DNA of 64,000 nucleotides. It comes from Candidatus Kaiserbacteria bacterium (GTDB taxonomy: Bacteria; Patescibacteriota; Minisyncoccia; Phycocordibacterales; UBA918). The position numbers and the translations under genes are program-made. This document shows, piece by piece, positions 24,545-45,004 of the stretch (positions within the stretch are counted from its first letter, which is position 1; every line of letters starts with the position of its first letter). Below the pieces are notes generated by a model. The model did not search any database. It was not told the DNA's origin and was given only the letters and a program-made list of their open reading frames with translations. The stretch lies in assembly GCA_016699245.1 (NCBI GenBank), contig CP064968.1, forward strand, positions 89,686 through 153,685, read 5' to 3'.

Positions 24545-25900
24545 TTACTCACTTATGGTACGAAGAATTTCCGCGAGGGTGGTTTTGCCTGCGACTGCTT
24601 TACGTAATCCATCTTCAAACATGGTAGTCATGCCTTCCTCAATCGCAATATTTTTAAGCACGACAGAAGATTTGCGTTCAAGAATTGCTTCGCGCACACG
24701 AGGGGAAGTAACAAGTACTTCGTATATTCCGATACGCCCCGAAAATCCAGTACGATCACACGCTTCACAGCCTTTACCTTTATAAAAAGTATTCGGAATG
24801 TTTTTAAGATTTTGTTTGAGGCGGTCGGGGAGTATGCGAAGGAGATTATGGCGCTCTGCCTCAGTGAGTGCGTGTGCTTCGGTACAATGTGGACATATTT
24901 TGCGAACAAGACGCTGACCGATGGCGATATTGATTGTTGATGCCACAAGGTATGCGTCGATTCCCATATCAAGAAGACGGGGAAGTGTGGTGGCTGCGTC
25001 ATTCGTATGAAGTGTGGAGAGAAGAAGGTGACCGGTGAGTGCAGTGTTGATTGCAATGCCTGCCGTCTCTGTATCACGTATTTCACCCACCATAATGATG
25101 TTGGGGTCCTGGCGCAAAATTGAGCGAAGTCCTTGTGCAAACGTGAGATTGGTACGAGTATTAATTTGAATTTGTGTGATACCCGGAATTGCGTACTCGA
25201 TGGGGTCTTCAATAGTGATAATCGATACCTCTTTTTTATTGAGCATTTTAATAAGCGTATAGAGGGATGTAGTTTTTCCGGAGCCTGTGGGGCCTGTGGC
25301 GAGAATCATTCCGTGGGGTTGCGCTATGGCGCGTTCAATTTTTTCTTGATCTTGAGGACTAAAGCCAAGCATCTCAAGTGTAAAATTGGATGAGTGATCG
25401 GCAAGGAGACGCAAGACGGCATTTTCCCCATAGTAGGTGGGAGTGATAGAAACACGAATATCGATAGGCTTGGTGTCGTTGGTGCCGGTTTGCATACGAA
25501 AGCGCCCGTCTTGCGCTGCCTGGTGCTCATCAGTGCGGAGCCCAGAAAGCACTTTGATGCGTGAAATGACTTCAGAGAGAATATTTTTTGGGAACGTACA
25601 CTTATCTTGTAATACACCATCAATGCGTAAACGCACGACCGCATCTTGTTCGGTGGGGTCAATGTGTATATCGGATGCACGAAGTGCGTATGCTTCTTCA
25701 ATACACGTTTGTACAAACTCAATAATAGGAATTGGTCCTGGGCGTGAAAGTATTTCCCGCACACTACCAGTTGTCGTTGGTGTTTGGCCCTGGTCTTTTA
25801 TGTCGATACTTTTCTCACCTTGAGACTGGTTCATGGTTTTGTGATTATGTGCTTCAGTGTGGGCCTTGTCTAGAGAGTCGGCTGGACAAGTGTTGGACAC
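24545..25900 (-). CDS. pilB: type IV pilus assembly ATPase PilB (GspE family)
   Basis: GPTGSGKTT Walker A, GEIRD Walker B/Asp box, His box, and tetracysteine motif CPHC...CEAC. Confidence 0.85.
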   Translation of the reverse strand: MSNTCPADSLDKAHTEAHNHKTMNQSQGEKSIDIKDQGQTPTTTGSVREILSRPGPIPIIEFVQTCIEEAYALRASDIHIDPTEQDAVVRLRIDGVLQDKCTFPKNILSEVISRIKVLSGLRTDEHQAAQDGRFRMQTGTNDTKPIDIRVSITPTYYGENAVLRLLADHSSNFTLEMLGFSPQDQEKIERAIAQPHGMILATGPTGSGKTTSLYTLIKMLNKKEVSIITIEDPIEYAIPGITQIQINTRTNLTFAQGLRSILRQDPNIIMVGEIRDTETAGIAINTALTGHLLLSTLHTNDAATTLPRLLDMGIDAYLVASTINIAIGQRLVRKICPHCTEAHALTEAERHNLLRILPDRLKQNLKNIPNTFYKGKGCEACDRTGFSGRIGIYEVLVTSPRVREAILERKSSVVLKNIAIEEGMTTMFEDGLRKAVAGKTTLAEILRTISE

Positions 25901-29432: not shown

Positions 29433-30866
29433 ATGAGGGATATAAAATACAGAGATCACGCGGTTGCACCTATGTTATGGTCACGATACGCTACCTATTT
29501 TTTTGTGATGCTCGCTATTCTTCTTATCCCAGTCTTATTAGCATTCAAAGTAGAAGCAGACGTTGCTATTTTTCATTCAGACACGTATCTCGAGCAGGGC
29601 GTTGAGATGACGCATGAGTCAGGAACTGAAAAATATATACAGTATGAACACTTTTGGAGTGATTTTGAAGGAGTTGTTCCCGAAGATGCTCTTGTAAACA
29701 ATATTACACTCCATCTTACGTGGTCACCGGTGACGCGCGTGGTCTCTGATGGGGCAGTGGAAGATTCTCCAAAAGAGGTGACTCCAGAAAGTACTCATGA
29801 AGAGGTGATGAATGAACTACCTACGCCTGAAGAGCAATTAGGGGAATCATTGCATGAGGAACTCCCTGTAGAGCCAGACGTTGCTATTCCTGAAGAAACA
29901 GAACCTTCTTCAGAGGCGGTTATTCCTGTAGACAGTATTGATGAGCCTGAAGAAGTAATTATAGAAGAATCCACCTCTGATTCGCCTCCCGAAGCGAGTG
30001 ATAATTCATCGGAGACTGTGGGATTTGAGGAGGTTTCATGGAATCATTTGTATTCATTAGTTAATGCGCAGATTGAAGAGGAAGTTGCAACAAATACAAT
30101 AGTAATAACTGAAGGAAGTGAACCTGAAGTGATAATTACTGAGTCTATTTCGACCACTTCAGGATTTGTCTCGGAAGATATTTTGATTGAAAATCAGGCT
30201 GAGAAGTTCTTTGAAGTGCGGTATACGATTGATGGGGTGACATGGCAAGAGCTTGGGAATGTTGGATTTGATGATGCACAGGATACAGTATTTGATCTTT
30301 CACCTATAGGTATTGATGCAATACCAAACCTACGCGTTGCTATTCGATACACCGTTCGTGATGGAGAAACGACGAAGATTATTTTTGATTCAATGCGACT
30401 CGAAGTCGGATATGGAGCACCGGTCATAGAGGAAGTCGCTCCGCCCACCCTACAAAATGATAGCGAACCAAATTTTGACGTTGGTGCAATTAAGGCTGAT
30501 GTCCAATCGGAAAATATTCGAGCGGTTGTACTCGAAAGAGGAGGAGTCTTTGAGTTTTGGTACTCCGTCACTGACCCGCAATCAGGTGCAGTTTTTTGGA
30601 ATAAAATTCTTGGAGGAGGGGCTGTTGATGAGAATGCACCGATCGGTATTAAAAAACGGACGATATTTTGGCTTGATCGCAATCAACAAACACTCTTTGG
30701 GTTTGCTGTTGATGAAGAATCAATATTTGCAACTCCATTTCAAGATGACCAGGAAAGTAAAGTCTTTCTCCTTCCATTTACAGATGAAAATGGCAAGCCG
30801 TGGGAAGCACTATTTAATTCCTCAGAGAACGTACTTGAGTTCAGTAAAGTAAAAAGTGAATCATGA
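29433..30866 (+). CDS. membrane-anchored surface protein with E/P/S-rich acidic linker
   Basis: N-terminal TM (FFVMLAILLIPVLLAF), ~120-aa acidic low-complexity region, then a ~250-aa globular region; stop overlaps the start of the giant gene (ATGA). Confidence 0.5.
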   Translation: MRDIKYRDHAVAPMLWSRYATYFFVMLAILLIPVLLAFKVEADVAIFHSDTYLEQGVEMTHESGTEKYIQYEHFWSDFEGVVPEDALVNNITLHLTWSPVTRVVSDGAVEDSPKEVTPESTHEEVMNELPTPEEQLGESLHEELPVEPDVAIPEETEPSSEAVIPVDSIDEPEEVIIEESTSDSPPEASDNSSETVGFEEVSWNHLYSLVNAQIEEEVATNTIVITEGSEPEVIITESISTTSGFVSEDILIENQAEKFFEVRYTIDGVTWQELGNVGFDDAQDTVFDLSPIGIDAIPNLRVAIRYTVRDGETTKIIFDSMRLEVGYGAPVIEEVAPPTLQNDSEPNFDVGAIKADVQSENIRAVVLERGGVFEFWYSVTDPQSGAVFWNKILGGGAVDENAPIGIKKRTIFWLDRNQQTLFGFAVDEESIFATPFQDDQESKVFLLPFTDENGKPWEALFNSSENVLEFSKVKSES

Positions 30867-33800
30867 TGCGAGAGCGGCTCTTTCCATACATACGAGCGTT
30901 GTCGAAAAGACACATACTCATGGTGGGTGTTAGTTTTTTTATTATGGGCGTGTGTATTCTTGGCACACGACACCTTCTCGTTGGTGAAAAAGTTGGGCAG
31001 TTTATAAGGACGAATCGGGCGCTTGCACACTACCAATTCACCCCCACGCATGGCACCATCGTCACCGGCGCATCCACCACCATCACCTCAGCTACCGGAA
31101 ATACTACTGAAGGAGTCAATGTGGGTTCATGGAAGGGAACACTCTCCGACGATAACTATCACTGGGTCGTCGCTGGGGCAGGAGCAAGCGGACTTGATGT
31201 CAACCTCACCATGGGTGGGGTACAGTTAAACGGCGCCAACAAACTCATTGTCCAAACAGAATTTGACCTCGATGCGACCATTCTTGCAACTGAGGTACAG
31301 ATTTGTGACTGGACGTCATCAACTGATGTGGACGATGCCGCAGACAGTGAATGTACGGGTGGCGGGTGGCGTACCCTCAACACAAAAAATGAACTGCAAG
31401 GCCCGCAACGCCTCGTACACAGCACCGGTATCCCATTTCAGTGGCACCTTTATAACGGGTATTGGTCTACCGGCACGACCGGGGGAGCAGCGGTTGATAC
31501 GCCACTCACGAACTTCCTCAACGGTGCCGATCAGATGAAATTCCGATACTTCTCTGCCTCATCGAGCGTGTCCGAAATCGCCATTGACTACCTTCGTGTG
31601 TACGCGGTCGTCGACCCGGTCTATCACGCGGGAGGATTTGTACAGGAATCAGGCGGCACGCCGAGTGGCCACTATGGCAACACCTTTAGCGTCGGCCATT
31701 CCGTGACCGCACAATTCGCGGTGACTACCGGTGATAATATCTACCTCGGTGTCCCCGGTACGGTTGCGACTACATCAAACTTCTACCTCACCTTCAAGAA
31801 CGTGAAGACATACACCGGCATGAATACCATTCTCGTGAACGCCGAGACACTCTGTTCTCTCGCAACGGCTGGTCTCCAGTACCGATTCAAGATTCGCAAT
31901 TTTAATACCAGTATCTGGGAAGATATTTCACAACCACTCGACTGTTCTACCAACGGGTTTTTCAACAACTTTGCCTTAAACAACATCGTCATTGATGACT
32001 ACATCAATGCGTCAAACGAAATATGGGTGGGTGTCTCTGCGCTCTCAAACTCGACGACACAAATTCGCATCGACTCCATCTACCTCATGCTCGGCACTAC
32101 CAACACCGACACGAACAGTTGTGAAATATCATTTGGATCAAACACTGCAGGACGCATTGCCTCAAACCCCTCTGCGCCAGGAGCGGATCGTATCCAAGCA
32201 CTCACCTCAGATGGTACGTATATGTACGCTTCGGGATACGACAGTGCGGGAATCGATAATGAGTGGCGCATAGAGAAGCGCAATCTTTCCGACGGAGACC
32301 TCGTCTCGGCATTTGGTGTTGGTGGCGCAACCTCAACCGATCCCTCAGTTGGTGCCGACCAAATTTTCGCCATCGCCACAACCTCGGGTGCGATATTTGT
32401 TGCGGGGTATGACACAGCAGCGGGCACGGGGCAGTGGCGTATCGAGAAGCGCGATAGTACCGATGGTACGCTCGAAACCGCGTTTGATACGGATGGCATT
32501 ATCACCACAAATCCTTCAGCAAGCCTCGATCACATCAATGCGATTGCCACTGATGCGAGTTACCTCTACGTGGCAGGAGTTGAAAATACTACGAGTGGTA
32601 CGTGGCGCATTCATAAGTATGACATCACCACCGGTGCACTCGTTACCGCATTTGATGGAGATGGTATCGCGACGAGCACGCTTGCTGCCTCGGGCGACGA
32701 ACGACCGCAGGCGCTCAAGGTGGATGGCGACTATCTGTACATCGGGGGATACGACAACCTCTCCGGGAACATCGAGTGGCGTCTCGAGAAGCGCAACAAG
32801 ACCACCGGTGCACTTTGTGCGGGTGGAGGGGAGTGTGCCGCAGGTGCATTTGATACCGATGGTGTGGTGCAGACAAACCCCTCTTCGGGTATTGATGCAA
32901 TACGTGCACTCGCCATTACCGACGCACACGTGTTCCTTGCAGGATACGACTCATCAACCACAAACAACCAGTGGCGCATCGAAAAGCGCGATATCGCGAC
33001 CGGCGCACTCGATACTGCATTCGATACCGATGGTATTATGCAATATAACCCAAGTACCGGTGCTGACTGGATAACCGCACTCGCACTCGATGACACCACA
33101 CTCTACGCGATTGGAAATGTGAGCAACGGTGCGTGGCGTGTTGATGCTCGCGATATCACGACCGGTGCCTCGACGACGTTCTCCGGTAACGGTACGACAC
33201 TCTCTGAAGATGGTGGTGATGACCAGCCACTTGCCGTCGTACAGGAGGGTGGGTATCTCTATGTTGCAGGATACGGCACTGCTCCAGGAGACAACCAATG
33301 GCTCATCGAAAAACTTGCGACGAACACAGGGCTGCGGAGCACCGACAGCTTTGGTGCAAATGATTGCACCGGAACACGAAACATTGATATCACCGGCGGG
33401 AACAGAGATGCATGGACAATCCAGACACAAGATGAATCAACGAATCACAGTACTCCATACTATGCACTCGATACCGACGGTGATGCAGCAATTGAGGAAG
33501 CGGGATCAGCAACCATCGGGTTTTCGGTTGCGGTACCGGGAAACAGTGCTGTCACCGGTATCTACTGGGCAGGACGCGCAATGAACGGTGCAGGAGCGGG
33601 TACGGTGCGCCTTGCCGTGAAGGACTACTCAGGATTCACCGGCCTTACAGGAGGCAGAAGTCTCGTCGGTTCCTCACCAGGAATTGCTATGACATACACT
33701 GATCCCTTGATAGTTGGTGGTATTACCTCAGGAGGTATGGCAGGGTACCTCACAAACCCTGAGGATTATATTGATACCTTAAATAATGAGATGTCACTCA

Positions 33801-34270
33801 GTCTCGTGACCAACTCGGATGGTGCGAGTACCACGAATGCCGTGAACGTATGGGACTTTGCGATGGTGAGTTTTAGTTGGGTGGAGGATCCTGATCATGA
33901 AAGCGCCACGTATCAATTCACCCCCACGCATGGCACCATCGTCACCGGCGCATCCACCACCATCACCTCAGCTACCGGAAATACTACTGAAGGAGTCAAT
34001 GTGGGTTCATGGAAGGGAACACTCTCCGACGATAACTATCACTGGGTCGTCGCTGGGGCAGGAGCAAGCGGACTTGATGTCAACCTCACCATGGGTGGGG
34101 TACAGTTAAACGGCGCCAACAAACTCATTGTCCAAACAGAATTTGACCTCGATGCGACCATTCTTGCAACTGAGGTACAGATTTGTGACTGGACGTCATC
34201 AACTGATGTGGACGATGCCGCAGACAGTGAATGTACGGGTGGCGGGTGGCGTACCCTCAACACAAAATGA
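30863..34270 (+). CDS. giant surface beta-propeller protein, part 1 (N-terminal TM + repeat unit 1 + start of unit 2; truncated by TGA created by an A4 tract)
   Basis: N-terminal TM; ~60-aa repeats of form AGYD...WRIEKRDxxDGTLxTAFDTDGI resembling delta-60-type beta-propeller repeats; terminates at 34268 where copy 2 has A4 instead of A6. Confidence 0.6.
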   Translation: MMRERLFPYIRALSKRHILMVGVSFFIMGVCILGTRHLLVGEKVGQFIRTNRALAHYQFTPTHGTIVTGASTTITSATGNTTEGVNVGSWKGTLSDDNYHWVVAGAGASGLDVNLTMGGVQLNGANKLIVQTEFDLDATILATEVQICDWTSSTDVDDAADSECTGGGWRTLNTKNELQGPQRLVHSTGIPFQWHLYNGYWSTGTTGGAAVDTPLTNFLNGADQMKFRYFSASSSVSEIAIDYLRVYAVVDPVYHAGGFVQESGGTPSGHYGNTFSVGHSVTAQFAVTTGDNIYLGVPGTVATTSNFYLTFKNVKTYTGMNTILVNAETLCSLATAGLQYRFKIRNFNTSIWEDISQPLDCSTNGFFNNFALNNIVIDDYINASNEIWVGVSALSNSTTQIRIDSIYLMLGTTNTDTNSCEISFGSNTAGRIASNPSAPGADRIQALTSDGTYMYASGYDSAGIDNEWRIEKRNLSDGDLVSAFGVGGATSTDPSVGADQIFAIATTSGAIFVAGYDTAAGTGQWRIEKRDSTDGTLETAFDTDGIITTNPSASLDHINAIATDASYLYVAGVENTTSGTWRIHKYDITTGALVTAFDGDGIATSTLAASGDERPQALKVDGDYLYIGGYDNLSGNIEWRLEKRNKTTGALCAGGGECAAGAFDTDGVVQTNPSSGIDAIRALAITDAHVFLAGYDSSTTNNQWRIEKRDIATGALDTAFDTDGIMQYNPSTGADWITALALDDTTLYAIGNVSNGAWRVDARDITTGASTTFSGNGTTLSEDGGDDQPLAVVQEGGYLYVAGYGTAPGDNQWLIEKLATNTGLRSTDSFGANDCTGTRNIDITGGNRDAWTIQTQDESTNHSTPYYALDTDGDAAIEEAGSATIGFSVAVPGNSAVTGIYWAGRAMNGAGAGTVRLAVKDYSGFTGLTGGRSLVGSSPGIAMTYTDPLIVGGITSGGMAGYLTNPEDYIDTLNNEMSLSLVTNSDGASTTNAVNVWDFAMVSFSWVEDPDHESATYQFTPTHGTIVTGASTTITSATGNTTEGVNVGSWKGTLSDDNYHWVVAGAGASGLDVNLTMGGVQLNGANKLIVQTEFDLDATILATEVQICDWTSSTDVDDAADSECTGGGWRTLNTK

Positions 34271-36770
34271 ACTGCAAGGCCCGCAACGCCTCGTACACAG
34301 CACCGGTATCCCATTTCAGTGGCACCTTTATAACGGGTATTGGTCTACCGGCACGACCGGGGGAGCAGCGGTTGATACGCCACTCACGAACTTCCTCAAC
34401 GGTGCCGATCAGATGAAATTCCGATACTTCTCTGCCTCATCGAGCGTGTCCGAAATCGCCATTGACTACCTTCGTGTGTACGCGGTCGTCGACCCGGTCT
34501 ATCACGCGGGAGGATTTGTACAGGAATCAGGCGGCACGCCGAGTGGCCACTATGGCAACACCTTTAGCGTCGGCCATTCCGTGACCGCACAATTCGCGGT
34601 GACTACCGGTGATAATATCTACCTCGGTGTCCCCGGTACGGTTGCGACTACATCAAACTTCTACCTCACCTTCAAGAACGTGAAGACATACACCGGCATG
34701 AATACCATTCTCGTGAACGCCGAGACACTCTGTTCTCTCGCAACGGCTGGTCTCCAGTACCGATTCAAGATTCGCAATTTTAATACCAGTATCTGGGAAG
34801 ATATTTCACAACCACTCGACTGTTCTACCAACGGGTTTTTCAACAACTTTGCCTTAAACAACATCGTCATTGATGACTACATCAATGCGTCAAACGAAAT
34901 ATGGGTGGGTGTCTCTGCGCTCTCAAACTCGACGACACAAATTCGCATCGACTCCATCTACCTCATGCTCGGCACTACCAACACCGACACGAACAGTTGT
35001 GAAATATCATTTGGATCAAACACTGCAGGACGCATTGCCTCAAACCCCTCTGCGCCAGGAGCGGATCGTATCCAAGCACTCACCTCAGATGGTACGTATA
35101 TGTACGCTTCGGGATACGACAGTGCGGGAATCGATAATGAGTGGCGCATAGAGAAGCGCAATCTTTCCGACGGAGACCTCGTCTCGGCATTTGGTGTTGG
35201 TGGCGCAACCTCAACCGATCCCTCAGTTGGTGCCGACCAAATTTTCGCCATCGCCACAACCTCGGGTGCGATATTTGTTGCGGGGTATGACACAGCAGCG
35301 GGCACGGGGCAGTGGCGTATCGAGAAGCGCGATAGTACCGATGGTACGCTCGAAACCGCGTTTGATACGGATGGCATTATCACCACAAATCCTTCAGCAA
35401 GCCTCGATCACATCAATGCGATTGCCACTGATGCGAGTTACCTCTACGTGGCAGGAGTTGAAAATACTACGAGTGGTACGTGGCGCATTCATAAGTATGA
35501 CATCACCACCGGTGCACTCGTTACCGCATTTGATGGAGATGGTATCGCGACGAGCACGCTTGCTGCCTCGGGCGACGAACGACCGCAGGCGCTCAAGGTG
35601 GATGGCGACTATCTGTACATCGGGGGATACGACAACCTCTCCGGGAACATCGAGTGGCGTCTCGAGAAGCGCAACAAGACCACCGGTGCACTTTGTGCGG
35701 GTGGAGGGGAGTGTGCCGCAGGTGCATTTGATACCGATGGAGTGGTGCAGACAAACCCCTCTGCTGGTGTCGATACAATACGCGCACTCGCCATTACCGA
35801 CACACATGTTTTCGTTGCAGGATACGACTCCTCAACCACGAACAACCAGTGGCGCATCGAAAAGCGCGATATCGCGACCGGCGCACTTGAAACTGCATTC
35901 GATACCGATGGTATTATGCAATATAACCCAAGTACCGGTGCTGACTGGATAACCGCACTCGCACTCGATGACACCACACTCTACGCGATTGGAAATGTGA
36001 GCAACGGTGCGTGGCGTGTTGATGCCCGTGACATAACAACAGGTGCCTCGACGACGTTCTCCGGTAACGGTACGACACTCTCTGAAGATGGTGGTGATGA
36101 CCAGCCACTTGCCGTCGTACAGGAGGGTGGGTATCTCTATGTTGCAGGATACGGCACTGCTCCAGGAGACAACCAATGGCTCATCGAAAAACTTGCGACG
36201 AACACAGGGCTGCGGAGCACCGACAGCTTTGGTGCAAATGATTGCACCGGAACACGAAACATTGATATCACCGGCGGGAACAGAGATGCATGGACAATCC
36301 AGACACAAGATGAATCAACGAATCACAGTACTCCATACTATGCACTCGATACCGACGGTGATGCAGCAATTGAGGAAGCGGGATCAGCAACCATCGGGTT
36401 TTCGGTTGCGGTACCGGGAAACAGTGCTGTCACCGGTATCTACTGGGCAGGACGCGCAATGAACGGTGCAGGAGCGGGTACGGTGCGCCTTGCCGTGAAG
36501 GACTACTCAGGATTCACCGGCCTTACAGGAGGCAGAAGTCTCGTCGGTTCCTCACCAGGAATTGCTATGACATACACTGATCCCTTGATAGTTGGTGGTA
36601 TTACCTCAGGAGGTATGGCAGGGTACCTCACAAACCCTGAGGATTATATTGATACCTTAAATAATGAGATGTCACTCAGTCTCGTAACGAACTCGGATGG
36701 TGCAAGTACCACGAATGCCGTGAACGTATGGGACTTTGCGATGGTGAGTTTTAGTTGGGTGGAGCCGGAA
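31023..36770 (+). repeat. 2 x 2,874-bp near-identical tandem duplication inside the giant surface gene
   Basis: Copy 1 31023-33896 and copy 2 33897-36770; the 5' ~1.85 kb is identical apart from the A-tract, with clustered substitutions in the 3' third. Confidence 0.9.
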
Positions 36771-37172
36771 CCCGTGCCAGTCTATTCGATATCAATTACC
36801 AGTGATGGAACAATACAGTATGGGTTTGTAGACCTGAGTGTAGCGAGTTCGACCGTTGGTGGGGATACACAGGCAGCAGAAAATACGGGAAGCCTTAATG
36901 AAAAAATAAATATTCGTTCAAGTAACGCTCTTGGCGGGACGAGCTGGCTTCTTGCATCAGTAATTGGAAGTAATCAGTATACTCATGAATTTTCGACAAC
37001 GACGGGAGTAACGTGGAAAACAATGCCCGATAGCAGTACATACGTGGTTGCAGATCCGTCTGTGACACCAAGTGGTACGGTAGATTTTGATTTTAGACTC
37101 ACGATGCCAAGCGGCACCACTGATTTTGTTGAAAAATCAATTACTATTACAGTCCAGGCCGTCGCCCCATAG
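34266..37172 (+). CDS. giant surface beta-propeller protein, part 2 (remainder of repeat unit 2 + unique C-terminal ~130-aa domain)
   Basis: Frame continuing copy 2 after the A-tract shift (ORF-track 34128..37172; the first ~45 residues of that ORF are out-of-frame read-through). Confidence 0.6.
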   Translation, partial: NELQGPQRLVHSTGIPFQWHLYNGYWSTGTTGGAAVDTPLTNFLNGADQMKFRYFSASSSVSEIAIDYLRVYAVVDPVYHAGGFVQESGGTPSGHYGNTFSVGHSVTAQFAVTTGDNIYLGVPGTVATTSNFYLTFKNVKTYTGMNTILVNAETLCSLATAGLQYRFKIRNFNTSIWEDISQPLDCSTNGFFNNFALNNIVIDDYINASNEIWVGVSALSNSTTQIRIDSIYLMLGTTNTDTNSCEISFGSNTAGRIASNPSAPGADRIQALTSDGTYMYASGYDSAGIDNEWRIEKRNLSDGDLVSAFGVGGATSTDPSVGADQIFAIATTSGAIFVAGYDTAAGTGQWRIEKRDSTDGTLETAFDTDGIITTNPSASLDHINAIATDASYLYVAGVENTTSGTWRIHKYDITTGALVTAFDGDGIATSTLAASGDERPQALKVDGDYLYIGGYDNLSGNIEWRLEKRNKTTGALCAGGGECAAGAFDTDGVVQTNPSAGVDTIRALAITDTHVFVAGYDSSTTNNQWRIEKRDIATGALETAFDTDGIMQYNPSTGADWITALALDDTTLYAIGNVSNGAWRVDARDITTGASTTFSGNGTTLSEDGGDDQPLAVVQEGGYLYVAGYGTAPGDNQWLIEKLATNTGLRSTDSFGANDCTGTRNIDITGGNRDAWTIQTQDESTNHSTPYYALDTDGDAAIEEAGSATIGFSVAVPGNSAVTGIYWAGRAMNGAGAGTVRLAVKDYSGFTGLTGGRSLVGSSPGIAMTYTDPLIVGGITSGGMAGYLTNPEDYIDTLNNEMSLSLVTNSDGASTTNAVNVWDFAMVSFSWVEPEPVPVYSISITSDGTIQYGFVDLSVASSTVGGDTQAAENTGSLNEKINIRSSNALGGTSWLLASVIGSNQYTHEFSTTTGVTWKTMPDSSTYVVADPSVTPSGTVDFDFRLTMPSGTTDFVEKSITITVQAVAP

Positions 37173-37255: not shown

Positions 37256-37807
37256 ATGTACCATCTTAATCACCACCAACTTTTTGGAGTAATAGAAAAA
37301 GCACGACACCAACTTTTTTTCATTGTAGTAAGTATGCTTTCGATCGCGATTGTTTTTGGTGGTATGAATGCTTTTGCACAGAGTACTGATACGGTGACTG
37401 CTACCGTGACCGCAACGAATCTTGCAGTCTCTGTTTCTGATGGTACTATCGCCTTTGGCTCAGTGGCGCTCAATACCGCAACAACGACCGTTGGCACCGC
37501 GCAAACACAAACCGTTTCTAATGATGGTTCGGCTGCAGTGCTTAATGTTAAATCGAGCAATGCAACAAATGGTACATTGTGGACTCTCGGCACAAGTCCT
37601 GGTTCGGATATTTTTAAACTCGAAGTATCAACAACGACGGGATCAACATACGGGACGCTTCAGGCTACTGACGTATATCTCACCGCATCATCAACGTTTG
37701 CCTCACTCACAAATCAAAACGTTGATTTCCGCTTCACGACACCAACTGTCTCCACAGACTTCGTCCAAAAGTCACTCACTATTACCGTGCAGGTGACGAC
37801 ACCATAA
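37256..37807 (+). CDS. small secreted protein paralogous to the C-terminal domain of the giant protein
   Basis: TM/signal, then a domain aligning with 36771..37172 (LWTLGTS vs SWLLASV; EVSTTTGSTYG vs EFSTTTGVTWK; DFRFTTP vs DFDFRLTMP; KSLTITVQV vs KSITITVQA). Confidence 0.5.
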   Translation: MYHLNHHQLFGVIEKARHQLFFIVVSMLSIAIVFGGMNAFAQSTDTVTATVTATNLAVSVSDGTIAFGSVALNTATTTVGTAQTQTVSNDGSAAVLNVKSSNATNGTLWTLGTSPGSDIFKLEVSTTTGSTYGTLQATDVYLTASSTFASLTNQNVDFRFTTPTVSTDFVQKSLTITVQVTTP

Positions 37808-37819
37808 TTACCTATTTAG

Positions 37820-38479
37820 ATGAAATATGGTATACCTATCTACATGCGATTAGCCACATACTCAGTTTTAGTAAAAATTCTGTTTGTCTTTGGGATTGTT
37901 TCTGTACTATTTTTACTCTCCTCAGAGGAGATGTTTGCGAAAGTTGGTGTGGGGATGGGTGCAGGTGAGATTCGAGTAACAGAATCCATAAAGCCAGGGG
38001 GGATTTACTCACTTCCCAGCCTTCGTGTGTTTAATACCGGAGATGAAACGACTACGTATGGAATGAATATTGCGTATCATCAGGACAATCCACAACTACG
38101 ACCAGGAAAATCATGGTTTTCTTTTACTCCTGCAACGTTCACGATAGAACCAGGTGAAAGTCAGGAAGTTCAGATATCGATGTCAGTCCCGGTGAAAACT
38201 GATCCGGGAGAATATTTTGCTTTTCTCGAAAGCGGACCAGTTGCGGAGGGTGGCCCAGGAACATCGGTAGGTGTTGCTGTTGCTACAAAACTCTATTTTG
38301 ATGTTGTACATGCAAATCTTTGGAGCGCACTGACGTACAGAGTTTCTACATTTCTCACGATATATGCACCGTGGTCATGGATTGGCTTAGGGCTTCTCGT
38401 GTGTGGTGCCGTTGCTTTTATCTTTGCGCGATTCTTTTCCCTGGACGTTTCCTTACGAAAAAAGAAAACACAAGAGTAA
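37820..38479 (+). CDS. membrane-anchored beta-sandwich surface protein (DUF916/DUF3324-like architecture)
   Basis: N-terminal signal/TM, Ig-like segment (FTIEPGESQEVQISMSVPVKTDPGEYFAFLE), C-terminal TM + basic tail RKKKTQE. Confidence 0.4.
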   Translation: MKYGIPIYMRLATYSVLVKILFVFGIVSVLFLLSSEEMFAKVGVGMGAGEIRVTESIKPGGIYSLPSLRVFNTGDETTTYGMNIAYHQDNPQLRPGKSWFSFTPATFTIEPGESQEVQISMSVPVKTDPGEYFAFLESGPVAEGGPGTSVGVAVATKLYFDVVHANLWSALTYRVSTFLTIYAPWSWIGLGLLVCGAVAFIFARFFSLDVSLRKKKTQE

Positions 38480-38484
38480 TTTTA

Positions 38485-39462
38485 ATGGTCTCAAAATCTT
38501 ACGTTTTTGTTTTTTCTATACTCATCCTGTGCGCTACTGCTTTTCTCAGTTATTTTGTGGTGAGTTATGCAGCAGATATTAATGCAACCATAACAACGGG
38601 CTTATTTACTCCACTCAGCCCTCTCAATCTCGCAGTCTCTATTTCTGACAGAAGTGTCGATCTTTCATGGTCGCCACCAGCATCGAATGGGGGATCGGTA
38701 CTTATTGATTATGTGATTGAATATAAGCTCACAACTGGGGGCGTTTGGGCTGTTTTTGTTGACTCCGTTTCAACAAGTACATCAGTAACAGTAACGGGTC
38801 TTACCAATGATACCTCCTATGATTTTAGGGTTTCTGGAGTGAATGCGATTGGTCAAGGCCCCGCTTCTACACCGGTGAGCGCAACACCGGGTGCTCCCGC
38901 TCAGGTACTCGTCACTGGTATGAGCGATGTAACCATTCCAACTATCAGTACATCGGTGAGAATTACCAACGAAGGTGCGGTTGCATACGAGTACCAGTAC
39001 ACGTGGTGTGTGACGAATTCTGACGTTAATCTGTGTGGAGGAGGGGATGATATTTTTAATTCCACCGCAGCAAAACTTATTCTTCCGGGAGAGAGTTGGG
39101 ATACGAGCCTTAGTTCTACGGTACCAATAATCGGCAACTACTGGTTTCATGTGCAAGTCCTGTTTGGCTCTGATTCTTCGTATGCAAGCCAATCATTTAC
39201 GACACTGAGTGAACCCAGTGGTGGTGGGGGAGGAGGGGGAAGCAGTGGGTCAAAAAGTAAGTCTCGGTCTTGCTCGGGCGGTGACTTTAACCGAGATAAG
39301 ATTGTGAACTTGGTCGACTTTTCAATTTTCCTCATGTCGTATAACAAACCTGCACCATTCCCCAATCCTTGTGTGGATATCAATAGTGACACAAAAGTAA
39401 ACGTGGTTGATTTTTCTATTCTTCTGACACAATGGGGTAAAAAGCCGATTCTCTATAAATAA
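38485..39462 (+). CDS. secreted FN3-domain protein with Gly-rich linker and C-terminal type-I dockerin
   Basis: Signal peptide; FN3 (LSWSPPASNGGSVLIDYVIEY...TSYDFRVSGVNAIG); GGGGGGSSGS linker; two Ca-binding dockerin loops exactly matching D1-x-N3-x-D5-x-x-V8-N9-x-x-D12 (DFNRDKIVNLVD, DINSDTKVNVVD) each followed by FSI(F/L)L helix. Confidence 0.65.
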   Translation: MVSKSYVFVFSILILCATAFLSYFVVSYAADINATITTGLFTPLSPLNLAVSISDRSVDLSWSPPASNGGSVLIDYVIEYKLTTGGVWAVFVDSVSTSTSVTVTGLTNDTSYDFRVSGVNAIGQGPASTPVSATPGAPAQVLVTGMSDVTIPTISTSVRITNEGAVAYEYQYTWCVTNSDVNLCGGGDDIFNSTAAKLILPGESWDTSLSSTVPIIGNYWFHVQVLFGSDSSYASQSFTTLSEPSGGGGGGGSSGSKSKSRSCSGGDFNRDKIVNLVDFSIFLMSYNKPAPFPNPCVDINSDTKVNVVDFSILLTQWGKKPILYK

Positions 39463-39467
39463 ATTGT

Positions 39468-40340
39468 ATGACACTCACGCATCTTTCTCATTTTTATAAA
39501 ATCAGTGTGGTTATCATATTGTTTTTTTGTGCGCAAATCACCTTTGCAGCGCACGTGACATTTGAAGTGGTTCCGGCACTTGTGCCCGATGATACGGCAA
39601 CAATTATTGAAGTGCGGATGAATCCGGATGGGGTACCCATTAATGCGGTTGAGGGTACGATAGGGCTCTTTGGTGCAGGACTATCAGCCGTCTCCTCAAT
39701 TATTGTTGAAACCGGTGGTTCCGCACTGACACTCTGGCCAAGTATCCCTGAGTACTCACCTTTAGAAAAGGTGATTCGATTCACCGGCGGCACTCCCGAA
39801 ACATTTTCCGGAGACGTATTACTATTTCGCATGAGAATCTTTTCAAAAAAACCAGGAGAAATTACCACGTCGTGGCTCGGAGGCTCAGCATATCAGAGTG
39901 ATGGAATCGGTACTAAAGAAGGTGTTTCCTCACGTTCACTCACCGTATCACTTGCTCAGAATGAACCAAATCAAATAAACGCAGCATCGATCGATTCAAC
40001 ACCGCCTCGCTTTGAAGATATTCTAATCTCACAAGATATAGATGCGTATGATGGAAAGCATTTTTTGAGTTGGAATGCAATTGATGATATCTCTGGAATC
40101 GCGAGGTATGAAGTTGTGGAAGGCACCACGACCACAGAAGTGAATAATGGTGTGTATGTATTACATGATCAAGAACGAAAGACGAAGATAATTGTTATTG
40201 CATATGACCATGCAGGAAATAGTACGTCAATCAAAGTTTCGACACGATACAATACACTCGGTATCATCGTCGTCGGTGTCGTAATTGCGCTCACGCTCCT
40301 TGGGGTTTTCATTGTTCGAAGAAGATACCTCAAGCAATAA
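39468..40340 (+). CDS. membrane-anchored cohesin-like domain protein (putative dockerin receptor)
   Basis: Signal peptide; ~140-aa N-terminal beta-sandwich with cohesin-like segments (VTFEVVPALVPDDTATIIEVRMNPDGVPINAVEGTIGL...LEKVIRFTGG); C-terminal TM LGIIVVGVVIALTLLGVFIV + RRRYLKQ. Confidence 0.4.
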   Translation: MTLTHLSHFYKISVVIILFFCAQITFAAHVTFEVVPALVPDDTATIIEVRMNPDGVPINAVEGTIGLFGAGLSAVSSIIVETGGSALTLWPSIPEYSPLEKVIRFTGGTPETFSGDVLLFRMRIFSKKPGEITTSWLGGSAYQSDGIGTKEGVSSRSLTVSLAQNEPNQINAASIDSTPPRFEDILISQDIDAYDGKHFLSWNAIDDISGIARYEVVEGTTTTEVNNGVYVLHDQERKTKIIVIAYDHAGNSTSIKVSTRYNTLGIIVVGVVIALTLLGVFIVRRRYLKQ

Positions 40341-40416: not shown

Positions 40417-43400
40417 TTATACCACGCGTCTTTTTTCTTCGATTTTCTTTTCGTTTCTGTAGAAGAGAGCAGGCACGAGAACGAGGGTGAGAATCATTGC
40501 AAAGGAAAGTCCAAACATAATGGCGAATGCGAGCGGGCTCCAGAAATCAGAGATGGTTGAAAGTGGAATCATACCAACTACGGTGGTGATGGTGGTAAGG
40601 AATATTGGTCGAAGGCGAGATACGGACGCGTCAGCAACCACCTCAATGAGTGAATCCCCAGGCTTCATTGCATTGTGGTAGTGGATCATTGAGTCGAGCA
40701 GGATAATGGCGTGATTGATGATAACGCCCGCAAGTGCGATGACTCCAAGGAGTGATGTGAAGGACAGTGCTTGGCCAGTGATAGTAAGCCCCACAAAGAC
40801 GCCAATGAGTGAGAGCGGTACAGCAAGCAATAGGTAGATAGAGTAACGGATAGAGTTGAAGGAAAGTACCAAAATTGCAAGCATGAGGACAAGTCCTGCT
40901 ACGAAGGCAAGCCCCATTTCGGTAAATGACTTGTTGATGTCTTCTGTTTCTCCACCGTAGGAGATGCGTACCGAGGAGGGAAGTGTGAGTTCCGCCTCTT
41001 TCGCCTTAAATGTTGCAACAATCTCTGCGGCGGTCACACCATCTTTGGTATACGCGGAGACTGTTTCAATACGCTCTTCGTCTTCATGTGCAATATTTGA
41101 GTTTGCGGGTGCAAGTCGGTCGCGTACTACAGAACCGACGAGCACCGGCTTGCCCGTCACACTTATGACGGTGAGGTTCCTTAGGGTATCGAGGGTGACT
41201 TTTGGTGATGCGGCAAAATCAGTTTCATTCGCATCAGTTTCAATTTTTACTATGACATCGGTATCGTCACCGTCTTCGGTGATAGTCGTCGCAGTGACGC
41301 CGAATACTGCAGAACGAAGCACTTCGCCTATCATTCCTGGTGAGACACCTGCAGCACTTGCTTTGCTTCTATCAACTTCGAGGATGAGCTCGGTAGCGCT
41401 ATTGTTGGTGCTCAGTGTTACATCGCGTGTCCCATTAATGGATTCAAGAAGTCTCCCTGCGTTTTCCACCGCGAGCGCAAGTTCGTTTAAGTCTGACCCA
41501 ATAAATTTAAGCGTCACTGGTGCACCCGTTGGCGGGCCGTTTTGTTGTTCGGCAACCTTTACATCAATATTTGGTATTACGTCGAGTGTGTCACGAAGGT
41601 CTGTCGCAATTTCTTCACTTGACTCAGTACGTTCTGGTTTCAGCGTAAGTGTGATGTTAGCAAATTTTTGCCCACTTTTTCCCTCACCCGTGAAGGAAGA
41701 CCCCGCACCTGCAGTCGAGGTAAATGACTCAATGTATCCTTTGTCATAGAGTAATTCTTCAGCAGTACGAAGTGAAAGGTCGGTCTCCGCGAGTGTGGTT
41801 CCCTGACGCGTCTCTAATTCCACAAAAACAAAGTCCACGTTTTCAGGCGGGAAGAAGATAACCTTAAGGAGTCCGCTTATGGGAAGGATAAAGACGAGAA
41901 GGAAGCCAACACCCAAGGAAATGAAGAAGTATCGTTGTGCGCGTGCATTCTTAAGAAACGTGATGAGATGACTGCGATACCATGCCTGTGCGCGCCTTGT
42001 ATATTCTTCTTGCTTTGCTTCGAAACGGTTGGCATGCGAGTGCTTGGTGAGGTACACCGCAATGAGTGGTACCATGCCGAGCGCGACAATAATGGAGGCA
42101 AGAAGTACAAAGATAATGGTGAAGGGAATTGACTTAATGAATTCACCTACAATTCCCGAGAGAAAAAAGAGTGGTGCAAAAACTGCAATGGTGGTCATGG
42201 TGCCTCCGATAAGTGGCCATGCGTATTCCTTGATTGCAGCTTTTGCCGCTTCATCCGCATTGCCGTACTTTTGCATGCGTGTATGAATCGCTTCGGTAAT
42301 CACAATACCTGAGTCCACCAAGATACCCACTGCAAGGATAAGTGAAAAAAGAGAAATGAAGTTAATAGTGTTACCCGACGCGTAGAGTCCGATAAATGCA
42401 ATGACAAAAGAAAGTGGAATAGAAAGCGCTGCTACAAGGGATTCGCGCCATCCAATCGTGAGGAGGAGGCAGATGATGACGAGCGCGACAGTCTCAAAAC
42501 CCGTAGTAACTAGTTCAGAAAGGTCGGTGCGCACGGTTTCTCCCTGGTCATAGACTACAAGAACTTGTGAAGAGGCGAGGAGACCACCTTCTTTTTGCAT
42601 GGATTCCATTCTTTCAAGTGCAGCAGCCGACATTTCGGTTACGTCCACACCCGCACGCTTAAAGATTGAGAGTGTGAATGCAGACTCTGCCGGAGCACCC
42701 GCTACGGAAACGCGAGAAATACTCGTCTCACGCTCAACTCCGTTTTTCACTGTTGCAACGTCACGTACGTACACTGGTACGCCGCTACCCATACTCACGG
42801 GAATGTTTTCAATTTCACTCACTTCTTTGAGTTTGCCTTCGTAGCGTACTGCATACTCAATGTCATCAGTCACCACGGTACCTATGGGTAACGTGAGGTT
42901 GGCGAGTCCGAGTGAACGTGAGACATCACTGAGGGTGAGTCCGTATGCATTCAGTGCCGATTCACGTACTGATACTTGTACTTGATGTGCACGAACACCT
43001 TCAATGGTGACTTCTGAAACACCACGGACATTTTTAAATTCATCAGCCACGGTCTCAGCGAGTGCAGTAAATTCAAGCGCCGGCAAATCAGATGATACGG
43101 AGAGTTGAAGTATCGGTTGGTTGGCAAAATCTACTTTGTTTACCTGTGGATCGGTGGCATCAGTAGGAAGGTCTTGTTTACCTCTATCTACTGCATCTTT
43201 TAAATCTTGAATAGATTTGTCGATATCTGCACTCGCATCAAAGTTGACTACAATAATAGACGCACCATCGCGCGATGTTGAGGTAAGTGAGTCGAGGTTA
43301 TCGACATTGCTTATCTCTCGCTCGAGTTTGTTGGTGATGAGTTCTTCAATATCAAGTGCAGATGCACCAGGATATATCGTGCTCACAATACCAATCGGTA

Positions 43401-43527
43401 CAATGATTTCTGGCGCTGATTCCTTAGGAATCGCAAAGAGGGAATAGAGTCCAATACCAACGAGCGCTGCAATGAGAAGCAGACTAAATTCGCGTTTTCG
43501 AAGAAAGAAAAACCAAAGTGCATGCAT
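40417..43527 (-). CDS. RND superfamily efflux transporter (AcrB/HAE-like)
   Basis: 1036 aa, 12-TM topology with two large periplasmic loops and AcrB-like N-terminus. Confidence 0.8.
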   Translation of the reverse strand: MHALWFFFLRKREFSLLLIAALVGIGLYSLFAIPKESAPEIIVPIGIVSTIYPGASALDIEELITNKLEREISNVDNLDSLTSTSRDGASIIVVNFDASADIDKSIQDLKDAVDRGKQDLPTDATDPQVNKVDFANQPILQLSVSSDLPALEFTALAETVADEFKNVRGVSEVTIEGVRAHQVQVSVRESALNAYGLTLSDVSRSLGLANLTLPIGTVVTDDIEYAVRYEGKLKEVSEIENIPVSMGSGVPVYVRDVATVKNGVERETSISRVSVAGAPAESAFTLSIFKRAGVDVTEMSAAALERMESMQKEGGLLASSQVLVVYDQGETVRTDLSELVTTGFETVALVIICLLLTIGWRESLVAALSIPLSFVIAFIGLYASGNTINFISLFSLILAVGILVDSGIVITEAIHTRMQKYGNADEAAKAAIKEYAWPLIGGTMTTIAVFAPLFFLSGIVGEFIKSIPFTIIFVLLASIIVALGMVPLIAVYLTKHSHANRFEAKQEEYTRRAQAWYRSHLITFLKNARAQRYFFISLGVGFLLVFILPISGLLKVIFFPPENVDFVFVELETRQGTTLAETDLSLRTAEELLYDKGYIESFTSTAGAGSSFTGEGKSGQKFANITLTLKPERTESSEEIATDLRDTLDVIPNIDVKVAEQQNGPPTGAPVTLKFIGSDLNELALAVENAGRLLESINGTRDVTLSTNNSATELILEVDRSKASAAGVSPGMIGEVLRSAVFGVTATTITEDGDDTDVIVKIETDANETDFAASPKVTLDTLRNLTVISVTGKPVLVGSVVRDRLAPANSNIAHEDEERIETVSAYTKDGVTAAEIVATFKAKEAELTLPSSVRISYGGETEDINKSFTEMGLAFVAGLVLMLAILVLSFNSIRYSIYLLLAVPLSLIGVFVGLTITGQALSFTSLLGVIALAGVIINHAIILLDSMIHYHNAMKPGDSLIEVVADASVSRLRPIFLTTITTVVGMIPLSTISDFWSPLAFAIMFGLSFAMILTLVLVPALFYRNEKKIEEKRRVV

Positions 43528-43531
43528 ATTA

Positions 43532-45004
43532 TTATTTGGTTACTGATACAAGGTCACCTTCTTTGCGTCCACGGGCGTCAGTAATGATGCGACTTTCGCG
43601 AGTAATACCCTCTGTTACCTCGACTGAATCTCCGAGTATTGCACCAAGTATCACAGGATACGCTTCAAGGGTATTCGTGTCACTTACACCAAAGACCACT
43701 GAGCCTGAGGCGAGCATTTTAATTGCCTTTAAGGGTACTACTATTACTGTTGATTCCTTCTTTGTACTTTCAGAAAATACGACTGATACCGTACTACCAT
43801 TCTTGAGTGAAAGAGATTCATCGACACTAATTTTCACCTCACTCTTTCCCGTTGTGGGGTCAATAGCAGGAGCGATTTGACCGTTGTTTGCAACAATTGC
43901 GGTCTGTGCACCAATACTGATGTATTCACCTTGTGTGATGTTAAGCGCGTTCACGATGCCCGATATAGGTGTTCGCACCAATGTTTTCTCGTAGTTTACC
44001 TGTGCACTTCTGAGTCCGCCGAGTGCTTGCTTCACCTGTGCATTTGCGAGTGATGCTGTGGGATTCTCGGTGCCGCCAATTTGCGCACGACGCACATTCT
44101 CGCGAGCATTGGTGAGAGCTGTTTTTGCATTTGCAAGTGCACTGAGGGTACCGTTAAGGGAGGTCCGTGCACTATTGAGTCCGGGCATATATTCGCTGAC
44201 AAGCTTGTCTTTGAGAGAATCATTATTTTCTGCCTTGCCTACAGCATAGACGAGTGCATCTAAAATACTAATAAGATCTTTTGTACGTTCCTCTGCATCA
44301 CGAAGTGCATCATCAAGGTCACTTGACGTCGTGAGTGACGTACTTTCTTTTTGCCAAAGTATAAGCGTCTTTCCGAATGCATAGCGTGACGTATTGAGGT
44401 AGTCGCTTTTACCCTCAGAACTAATACGAACACCAGGAGTGGGTGACTCAGGATTCCCAAAGAATACATCAACCGTGTCGAGCGTGATGTCGTGTACAGA
44501 GATATACGCATTGCGGTAGGTAGTGACGGCACTGTTTTCAGCAGAGAGGAGTGCGCTCTCTGCGTCCCCCACAGAAATTTCACTTACCGCTGCACTCGCG
44601 AGTGCAGATTCATATCCAGCTTCTGCTTGAAGGAGTTGTGCACGCTCACTGCCATTCTCAATCGAGCCGAGAATGCTGCCTGCCGTGACGCGGTCACCAA
44701 TTTTTGTATTGACGGTGGTGATACGCCCACCAGCCTCTGCTTGGAGTCTTGCTTCGGAGATAGCACGCACGGTACCCACTACAGAAAAGGTGCTTTCACT
44801 ACCAAAATTCCCTACGGTCGCAAGAGTGACGGAAGGAAGGGAGGGCTCTGCTACATCAGTAGTTGTGTCATCACCAGTAACGAGGATAACGAGTATCACA
44901 AGCACCAACATGAGTCCTCCAATACGAAAGACCTTAGCACGAGTGCTTTGAGGCATAAAGAAAGCGACTGTTTTCCGAAGAAAACCAGTTATTGATTGAA
45001 TCAT
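43532..45004 (-). CDS. efflux periplasmic adaptor (membrane fusion protein, HlyD/AcrA family)
   Basis: N-terminal TM, long coiled-coil, beta-barrel/lipoyl-like segments; immediately upstream of the RND gene with 5-bp spacing. Confidence 0.6.
   Translation of the reverse strand: MIQSITGFLRKTVAFFMPQSTRAKVFRIGGLMLVLVILVILVTGDDTTTDVAEPSLPSVTLATVGNFGSESTFSVVGTVRAISEARLQAEAGGRITTVNTKIGDRVTAGSILGSIENGSERAQLLQAEAGYESALASAAVSEISVGDAESALLSAENSAVTTYRNAYISVHDITLDTVDVFFGNPESPTPGVRISSEGKSDYLNTSRYAFGKTLILWQKESTSLTTSSDLDDALRDAEERTKDLISILDALVYAVGKAENNDSLKDKLVSEYMPGLNSARTSLNGTLSALANAKTALTNARENVRRAQIGGTENPTASLANAQVKQALGGLRSAQVNYEKTLVRTPISGIVNALNITQGEYISIGAQTAIVANNGQIAPAIDPTTGKSEVKISVDESLSLKNGSTVSVVFSESTKKESTVIVVPLKAIKMLASGSVVFGVSDTNTLEAYPVILGAILGDSVEVTEGITRESRIITDARGRKEGDLVSVTK

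Follow-up and report, generated by a model that had tools for sequence, protein, structure and literature searches.

Cohesin–Dockerin Systems and the Locus under Study

Binding between cohesin and dockerin domains is known from both bacteria and archaea (PMC9012536). The present work deals with two adjacent genes, here called A and B, found in a stretch of 64,000 nucleotides from the genome of an uncultured Candidatus Kaiserbacteria bacterium (GenBank assembly GCA_016699245.1, contig CP064968.1, positions 89,686 to 153,685 of the forward strand), which is referred to in its full length as the window and whose first letter is position 1. Gene A encodes a secreted protein ending in a dockerin, and gene B a membrane-anchored protein with a divergent cohesin. 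With a probability of roughly two in three, the two products form a non-cellulosomal, calcium-dependent cohesin–dockerin tether on the patescibacterial cell surface.

Among the closest known systems are those of Clostridium thermocellum, namely the complex between the CipA cohesin and the Xyn10B dockerin (1ohz) and the proteins OlpA and OlpC (type-I dockerin complexes, PDB 3ul4 and 4dh2), which as single-cohesin anchoring proteins represent the closest functional analogues. In comparison with them, B is anchored through a C-terminal transmembrane (TM) helix and an immunoglobulin (Ig)-like stalk instead of surface-layer homology (SLH) repeats, and is too divergent for the Pfam Cohesin model, whereas the cargo of A is FN3/Ig-like and not an enzyme, and the organism is an ultra-small bacterium of the Patescibacteria. 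Closest in logic is the pair ClcC/ClcD of Cellulosilyticum lentocellum (Clole_2599/Clole_2598), encoded by adjacent cohesin and dockerin genes, which forms a heterodimer in vitro and was presented as a “minimal cellulosome-like system” that enhances cellulase activity on cellulose substrates (PMC13487519). Both systems share a reduced two-component logic, with one cohesin gene adjoining one dockerin gene, but the A/B pair, whose members are putative binding partners, carries no enzyme, has a membrane-anchored cohesin and is conserved phylum-wide. In architecture, on the other hand, closest to B are the single-cohesin scaffoldins with a C-terminal TM helix predicted in the Firmicutes H. luporum, C. 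cibarium and Lachnoclostridium sp. MSJ-17 (PMC11557425), which were proposed as non-SLH anchoring scaffoldins. These come from a cellulosome survey and mostly have no known partner, whereas in nearly all genomes the gene just upstream of B encodes a candidate partner.

Non-cellulosomal cohesins and dockerins also occur in many lineages; examples are the cohesin of Archaeoglobus fulgidus (2xdh), the cohesins of the GH33 and GH84 enzymes of Clostridium perfringens (2vo8, 2o4e) and modules from anaerobic methanotrophic (ANME) archaea and from giant open reading frames (ORFs) of Omnitrophota. No report of a conserved operonic dockerin-to-cohesin order or of a cohesin–Ig–TM anchor family was found for any of them in the texts consulted, nor was a description found, in the literature searched, of an operonic pair of the A/B type or of a cohesin–Ig–TM family in Patescibacteria. 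A dockerin protein reported to be essential in the cultivated Saccharibacterium Southlakia epibionticum (SEML1_0315) was considered as an instance of the same module and rejected: it has 927 aa, adjoins hydrolase and tRNA genes and has no cohesin gene beside it. The cohesin–dockerin principle is thus known, while its membrane-anchored, phylum-wide and non-enzymatic version appears to be undescribed.

Architecture of the Two Proteins

The two genes and the parts of their products are as follows.

38485..39462, + strand: gene A, secreted FN3 / beta-sandwich / dockerin protein of 325 aa (ORF and translation)
38485..38571, + strand: signal peptide of A, residues 1 to about 29, ...VVSYA/AD (hydrophobic stretch in the translation; putative cleavage site)
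38617..38883, + strand: FN3 domain of A, residues 45–133 (Pfam fn3, E=3.7e-16; titin FN3 domains matched in the PDB)
38887..39207, + strand: second beta-sandwich of A, residues 135–241, about 105 aa (seven strands in the AlphaFold2 (AF2) model, predicted local distance difference test (pLDDT) 91–98)
39208..39270, + strand: flexible Gly/Ser linker SEPSGGGGGGGSSGSKSKSRS, residues 242–262 (translation; AF2 pLDDT <50 for model residues 113–126)
39271..39438, + strand: dockerin module, C263–G318, 56 residues, two F-hand repeats and the pair Cys263/Cys296 (Pfam Dockerin_1, profile and AF2)
39283..39318, + strand: calcium-binding loop 1 DFNRDKIVNLVD, D267–D278 (translation; conservation across 38 sequences)
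39376..39411, + strand: calcium-binding loop 2 DINSDTKVNVVD, D298–D309 (translation; conservation across 38 sequences)
39468..40340, + strand: gene B, membrane-anchored cohesin protein of 290 aa (ORF starting 5 nt past the stop of A)
39468..39548, + strand: signal peptide of B, residues 1–27, ...QITFA/A (AF2 helix 2–21; A27 near-invariant; putative cleavage site)
39549..39962, + strand: divergent cohesin domain of B, residues 28–165, about 140 aa, nine strands
39990..40250, + strand: Ig-like stalk domain of B, residues 175–261, about 90 aa (weak match to Pfam DUF7743, E=0.0017; AF2 beta-sandwich with pLDDT 85–90)
40257..40337, + strand: C-terminal TM helix of B (L264–V283, 20 residues) and cytoplasmic tail RRRYLKQ (translation; AF2 helix 263–289)

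Both ORFs and their translations are as given in a preliminary description of this locus, which had also recognised the FN3 domain of A. Its order of FN3, linker and dockerin in A holds as well, as does its layout of B with a signal peptide, a domain of about 140 aa and a single C-terminal TM helix, but in each protein one domain had been overlooked, namely the beta-sandwich at residues 135–241 of A and the Ig-like domain of B; the linker, read there as GGGGGGSSGS, is real, with a run of seven glycines and not six. The additional sandwich of A has a generic Ig/FnIII-like fold, for which Foldseek returned C-terminal domains of GH3 enzymes, RbmA and BslA, and it accompanies the dockerin in 30 loci. 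An AF2 model of residues 135–325 of A, built from an alignment of 79 sequences, shows the confident sandwich, a linker with pLDDT below 50 and a two-helix dockerin at 85–95, and its predicted template modelling (pTM) score of 0.58 fits two independent domains. The model of B has a mean pLDDT of 86.9, with values of 90–96 in the N-terminal domain. Gene B starts a mere 5 nt after gene A stops, an operon-like spacing, and the gap holds no terminator.

A Real Dockerin with Family-Specific Helices

The C-terminus of A is a real dockerin, with a signal far beyond chance. It reads ...SGGGGGGGSSGSKSKSRSCSGG-DFNRDKIVNLVD-FSIFLMSYNKPAPFPNPCV-DINSDTKVNVVD-FSILLTQWGKKPILYK, and both the translation and the AF2 model agree with the dockerin pattern of two tandem repeats of about 22 residues; in each repeat a 12-residue calcium-binding loop with ligands at positions 1, 3, 5, 9 and 12 (D1, N3, D5, N9, D12) is followed by a helix beginning F-S-I-(F/L)-L (DFNRDKIVNLVD-FSIFL and DINSDTKVNVVD-FSILL), both loops and helices having been noted in the preliminary description. 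Across the 38 sequences compared, D1 and D12 of loop 1 are invariant and N3, D5 and V8 near-invariant, whereas loop 2 keeps D1, N3, D5 and D12 without exception; the DFSI motif behind each loop is, like the calcium-ligand positions, invariant or nearly so among relatives, and the cysteines C263 and C296 are kept in most of the close ones. The Pfam model Dockerin_1 (PF00404), with a gathering cutoff of 22.9 bits, scores 23.1 bits on the isolated domain (E=8.5e-5) and 18.8 bits, under the cutoff, on full-length A, and it matches all 38 diverse relatives at E<=0.01 (best 5.8e-15). Moreover, a profile made from the 38 dockerins retrieved type-I dockerins ahead of everything else in the PDB (5nrk_B, 1daq, 2mte, 4fl4, 2y3n and 2vn5_B, with E from 6e-10 to 2e-8). 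Foldseek with the AF2 model of the sandwich plus dockerin gave no dockerin among the top 50 matches, which are dominated by the larger beta-sandwich, and the dockerin fold therefore rests on the sequence profiles together with the AF2 secondary structure. A total of 183 homologues of A were found, every named one from Patescibacteria, and the NCBI names of relatives are “dockerin type I repeat-containing” or “fibronectin type III domain-containing”.

The loops of this dockerin are canonical, but the contact positions of its helices are family-specific, and its designation as a “textbook type-I” dockerin in the preliminary description was in this respect overstated. Classical type-I dockerins of C. 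thermocellum carry a Ser-Thr recognition pair at helix positions 10–11. The dockerin of A lacks this pair and has instead the hydrophobic residues L-V and V-V, set within the invariant DFSI(L/F)L motif, the relatives having mostly S-V or L-I/V at the same positions; loop position 6, furthermore, is K or T and not the usual G.

A Divergent Cohesin on a Membrane Anchor

The N-terminal domain of B is a divergent but real cohesin, as indicated by its fold together with a bridge in sequence through a wider family. The domain is a nine-stranded jelly-roll beta-sandwich of about 140 residues, as expected of a cohesin, and its structural matches are to cohesins specifically, ahead of every other beta-sandwich. 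Jackhmmer searches of the ORFs of related loci joined the domain, at 1e-17 to 1e-48, to a wider patescibacterial family, 23 of whose 43 members match Pfam Cohesin (best 1.9e-9) and whose profile matches cohesins in the PDB at E from 6e-4 to 1e-2. A downstream paralogue in the Falkowbacteria locus L012 scores above the gathering cutoff of Pfam Cohesin.

As in anchoring scaffoldins, the cohesin of B is joined to an envelope anchor, the chain consisting of signal peptide, cohesin, Ig-like stalk, TM helix and positively charged tail. A sortase or other C-terminal sorting signal was considered and ruled out, there being no LPXTG-like motif ahead of the TM helix. The search for homologues of B returned 61 sequences, with Patescibacteria/Candidate Phyla Radiation (CPR) as the source of every named one, and a profile search against 1.84 billion representatives extended the family to at least 1,153 clusters at 50% identity (E<=1e-30). 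In 150 listed clusters the lengths are mostly 285–315 aa, with the architecture of B, and every source that gives a name labels these relatives “hypothetical protein”.

Conservation of the Pair and Its Cargo across Patescibacteria

A genome scan returned 52 loci, 49 of which contain a cohesin gene. In 44 of these 49 the cohesin gene is directly preceded by a gene ending in this dockerin, whose stop falls between −128 and +36 nt relative to the cohesin start; of the other five loci, a contig end truncates two, and in two more the dockerin gene is 0.65–0.9 kb upstream. The adjacency holds for orthologues of B down to 23% identity to the protein of the window, and the synteny is phylum-wide, covering Paceibacterota, Minisyncoccia and Falkow-, Wolfe-, Nomura-, Kaiser-, Kerfeld-, Magasanik- and Gribaldobacteria. 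The 64-kb window itself has a single dockerin and a single cohesin. In the locus L036 (13344–14054, − strand) the two modules of the A/B family occur naturally fused in one chain (cohesin at residues 44–169 and dockerin at 172–221), for which head-to-tail self-association would be conceivable.

The cargo carried by the dockerin was read from the genome loci, as a dockerin-profile search of a large protein database gave short contig-end fragments only. It consists of one FN3 domain and the beta-sandwich in the window, and in the nine related dockerin proteins examined of FN3, Big_6, Big_13 or MG2 domains, one variant having the sandwich alone behind MG2-like repeats. At the other extreme are giants of >3,200–3,300 aa from Falkowbacteria and another metagenome-assembled genome (L012 282–9953 and L014 3–9998), with Gly-rich repeats at the N-terminus and some 27 FN3 repeats, which end in the same cassette of FN3, sandwich, linker and dockerin as the protein of the window. 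The most fitting view of the module is therefore that it anchors fibres or adhesins at the surface, and the window holds its shortest version. Neither in the window nor in about 50 related loci does a dockerin come with an enzyme, a catalytic domain or a carbohydrate-binding module (CBM), and the window proteins scanned against Pfam include no glycoside hydrolase. Given this non-enzymatic cargo, in which only FN3, Big, MG2 or Ig-like domains were recognised, the A/B system would display structural, adhesin-like proteins and is not a cellulosome.

Weighing the Evidence for a Cognate Pair

Several observations weigh against the view that A and B are partners through a cohesin–dockerin interaction, and some of them favour other explanations. 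The preliminary description had called the N-terminal domain of B cohesin-like, which the fold and the bridged family bear out but its own sequence does not: B gives no significant match in Pfam (including Cohesin, PF00963), NCBIfam or the PDB, and a profile of its 46 close relatives reaches no cohesin. The strongest motifs of the family (GGSxLxLWPxxP, FxGGxPxG and NDGxGT) are its own and not classical, so that the dockerin interface of B may be non-canonical. Moreover, the 8-3-6-5 sheet, which is the dockerin-binding face of classical cohesins, is not significantly more conserved than the other sheet (2.27 versus 1.90 bits, p=0.06). The motifs and the sheet would suit a quite unlikely scenario in which no cohesin–dockerin binding occurs at all, the dockerin-like module being a calcium-stabilised structural or wall/glycan-binding end-piece and B an Ig-like member of a fibre-assembly locus that also includes the proteins of 183 and 219 aa encoded upstream of A. 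In its favour, generic EF-hand models also match 17 of the 38 dockerin segments, and the pair is embedded, in the clade of the window, in a longer cluster with a giant repeat protein and these two small beta-rich proteins. That cluster is, however, confined to one clade, while the adjacency of dockerin and cohesin is phylum-wide; the structural match of B is specific to cohesins; and, with the binding between the two domains known (PMC9012536), the joint retention of both would be hard to explain otherwise. As for a small cellulosome, in which a scaffoldin bound to the cell would hold a complex of enzymes degrading plant or host polysaccharides, cohesin and dockerin are certainly the signature modules of such complexes, and in both structure and sequence the best matches come from cellulosomes. 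Nevertheless, no dockerin here is borne by a carbohydrate-active enzyme, each protein has a single cohesin without any CBM, and the lack of catalytic, carbohydrate-binding and glycoside hydrolase domains described above makes this explanation extremely improbable.

A different question is whether a real dockerin and a real cohesin are partners of each other. The count of 44 out of 49 derives from loci that were all found through B and covers the dockerins of those loci, and in 37 of the 49 loci a second or third cohesin–Ig–TM gene lies directly downstream (two cohesins in 34 loci, three in 3). The second protein is longer (about 480–800 aa, in L006, L008, L010–L014 and most others; e.g., L012 10779–12587), and its cohesin is closer to the classical ones than that of B, passing the Pfam Cohesin cutoff in L012. 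The dockerin could accordingly bind this second cohesin, or one encoded elsewhere in the genome or located on a host, leaving B for another ligand, and its internally symmetric repeats (LVDFSIFL and VVDFSILL) could even serve two partners. Such an arrangement is unlikely. No second cohesin occurs in the window or among its close relatives, where the A–B pair is nevertheless intact, and the adjacent gene is always that of the first cohesin. In a mirror-tree comparison, dockerin distances correlated with those of the adjacent cohesin (r=0.50) more strongly than with those of the Ig domain of B (0.46), the second cohesin (0.38) or its Ig domain (0.24), with a partial r of 0.32–0.36 given the Ig domain (permutation p<=0.0005) and of 0.43 for the adjacent cohesin given the second one, a signal that is confounded by shared phylogeny and only suggestive of pairing.

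Altogether, the idea of a cognate pair encoded side by side, put forward in the preliminary description, has gained strong comparative support from the synteny and from a dockerin divergence that tracks the adjacent cohesin more than the control domains. The preliminary observation as a whole is confirmed, and its interpretation is supported, every testable part of it having held. The analysis shows which domains are present, how the proteins are laid out relative to the membrane, how the genes are spaced and ordered across the phylum, and what cargo they carry. Since cohesin–dockerin binding is known, the adjacent pair of C. lentocellum does bind and the mirror-tree signal is suggestive, we infer that A and B would bind each other, presumably in a calcium-dependent way, and that the bound protein would serve in display.

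In the tether that we favour, both proteins would be exported by the Sec pathway. B would be kept in the membrane as a type-I protein by its C-terminal TM helix and positive tail, with its cohesin held about one Ig domain above the membrane, while A would be released and its C-terminal dockerin would fold around two Ca2+ ions. Borne on a flexible Gly/Ser linker of about 20 residues, this dockerin may then plug into the cohesin of B, by which the FN3 domain and the beta-sandwich of A, or a long FN3 fibre in the relatives, would be held non-covalently at the cell surface.

Genomic Context in the Window

The A–B pair closes a tightly packed, co-directional gene run that opens with a 477-aa protein of unknown family and continues with the giant repeat protein, the proteins of 183 and 219 aa, A and B. 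Two rows complete the list of features given above.

30863..37172, + strand: giant repeat-protein gene (delta-60-like repeats), split into ORFs of 1135 and 1014 aa
37256..38479, + strand: two co-directional genes upstream of A, with 12 nt between them and 5 nt between the second and A

The product of the first of these two genes (183 aa, 37256–37807) is secreted and beta-rich. That of the second (219 aa, 37820–38479) combines a hydrophobic segment at the N-terminus with a single Ig-like domain, a C-terminal TM helix and a KKK tail, with only weak Pfam matches (fn3_5, PapD_N and NEW3, E 0.004–0.08). Searches with Pfam, NCBIfam and PDB profiles assigned neither protein to a family, and a TasA/camelysin-like or WxL/DUF916-like identity, considered for them, was rejected for want of significant support in the same three sources. 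The C-terminal 125 or so residues of the giant protein (36804–37169) are homologous to the mature 183-aa protein (37256–37807), at 45–50% identity, a pattern expected of a large and a small subunit that share an assembly domain. Both small genes are syntenic with A and B in the loci L001, L003–L005 and L007–L009, and in the clade of the window the 219-aa gene always stands between the 183-aa gene and A. The longer upstream cluster is conserved only in this clade, and the “minimal two-component” system of the preliminary description is thus correct as to the adjacent pair but not as to its isolation, the pair being here the tail of a longer conserved cluster.

The giant gene contains a 2.86-kb tandem duplication (31028–33886 and 33907–36764, with 99.0% nucleotide identity), and its two ORFs, 30863–34270 and 34128–37172, jointly match one gene of 2122 aa in L001. 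The reading frame breaks at 34263–34270, where an A-run is A6 in the first copy but A4 in the second and leads to a TGA stop; the cause could be a frameshift, phase variation of the homopolymer or an error of assembly. The G+C content reaches 0.53 over 32001–36000, coinciding with the duplicated gene, against about 0.42–0.47 in the remaining window. Directly downstream of B, and on the opposite strand (40417–45004, −), are genes for an AcrB/RND-type transporter (1036 aa, Pfam E=2e-178), convergent with B, and for an HlyD-like membrane-fusion protein (490 aa). Elsewhere in the window, a gene for a 594-aa protein (22703–24487, −) with a C-terminal GDSL lipase/acylhydrolase domain and weak BclA_C-like and THSD1_N-like stretches adjoins the gene of a PilB-type T2SSE ATPase (24545–25900). 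The 64-kb window yielded neither tRNA genes nor Rfam families at gathering score.

Implications for Patescibacterial Surfaces

A large part of bacterial diversity belongs to the Patescibacteria, whose few cultivated members live as epibionts of other bacteria, their hosts (PMC10633639). Little is understood of how their surface structures are built and anchored, and if the favoured tether is correct, a conserved two-gene system for FN3/Ig fibres of up to more than 3,300 residues would offer a concrete, testable handle on this problem. The weight of the finding lies in the breadth of its conservation and its relevance to the surface of ultra-small episymbiotic bacteria, tempered by the fact that the principle is well known and that the binding is presumptive. 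A broader and more tentative possibility, for which the odds are clearly below even, is that the pair represents a phylum-wide, unrecognised way of hanging long FN3/Ig fibres on the membrane, perhaps as host-contacting fibrils, through a non-covalent, calcium-dependent plug with a recognition code of its own (the invariant DFSI(L/F)L helices on the dockerin, GGSxLxLWP and NDGxGT on the cohesin); in the clade of the window, the short A might then act as an adaptor coupling the anchor to a giant, separately encoded beta-propeller-like adhesin and to the proteins of 183 and 219 aa.

Were the tether real, a family of at least 1,153 clusters now labelled “hypothetical protein” would acquire a role, and a divergent pair with an unusual hydrophobic recognition motif would join the toolbox of orthogonal protein connectors. 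Moreover, cohesin–dockerin biology would be extended to a non-enzymatic, membrane-anchored and phylum-wide use.

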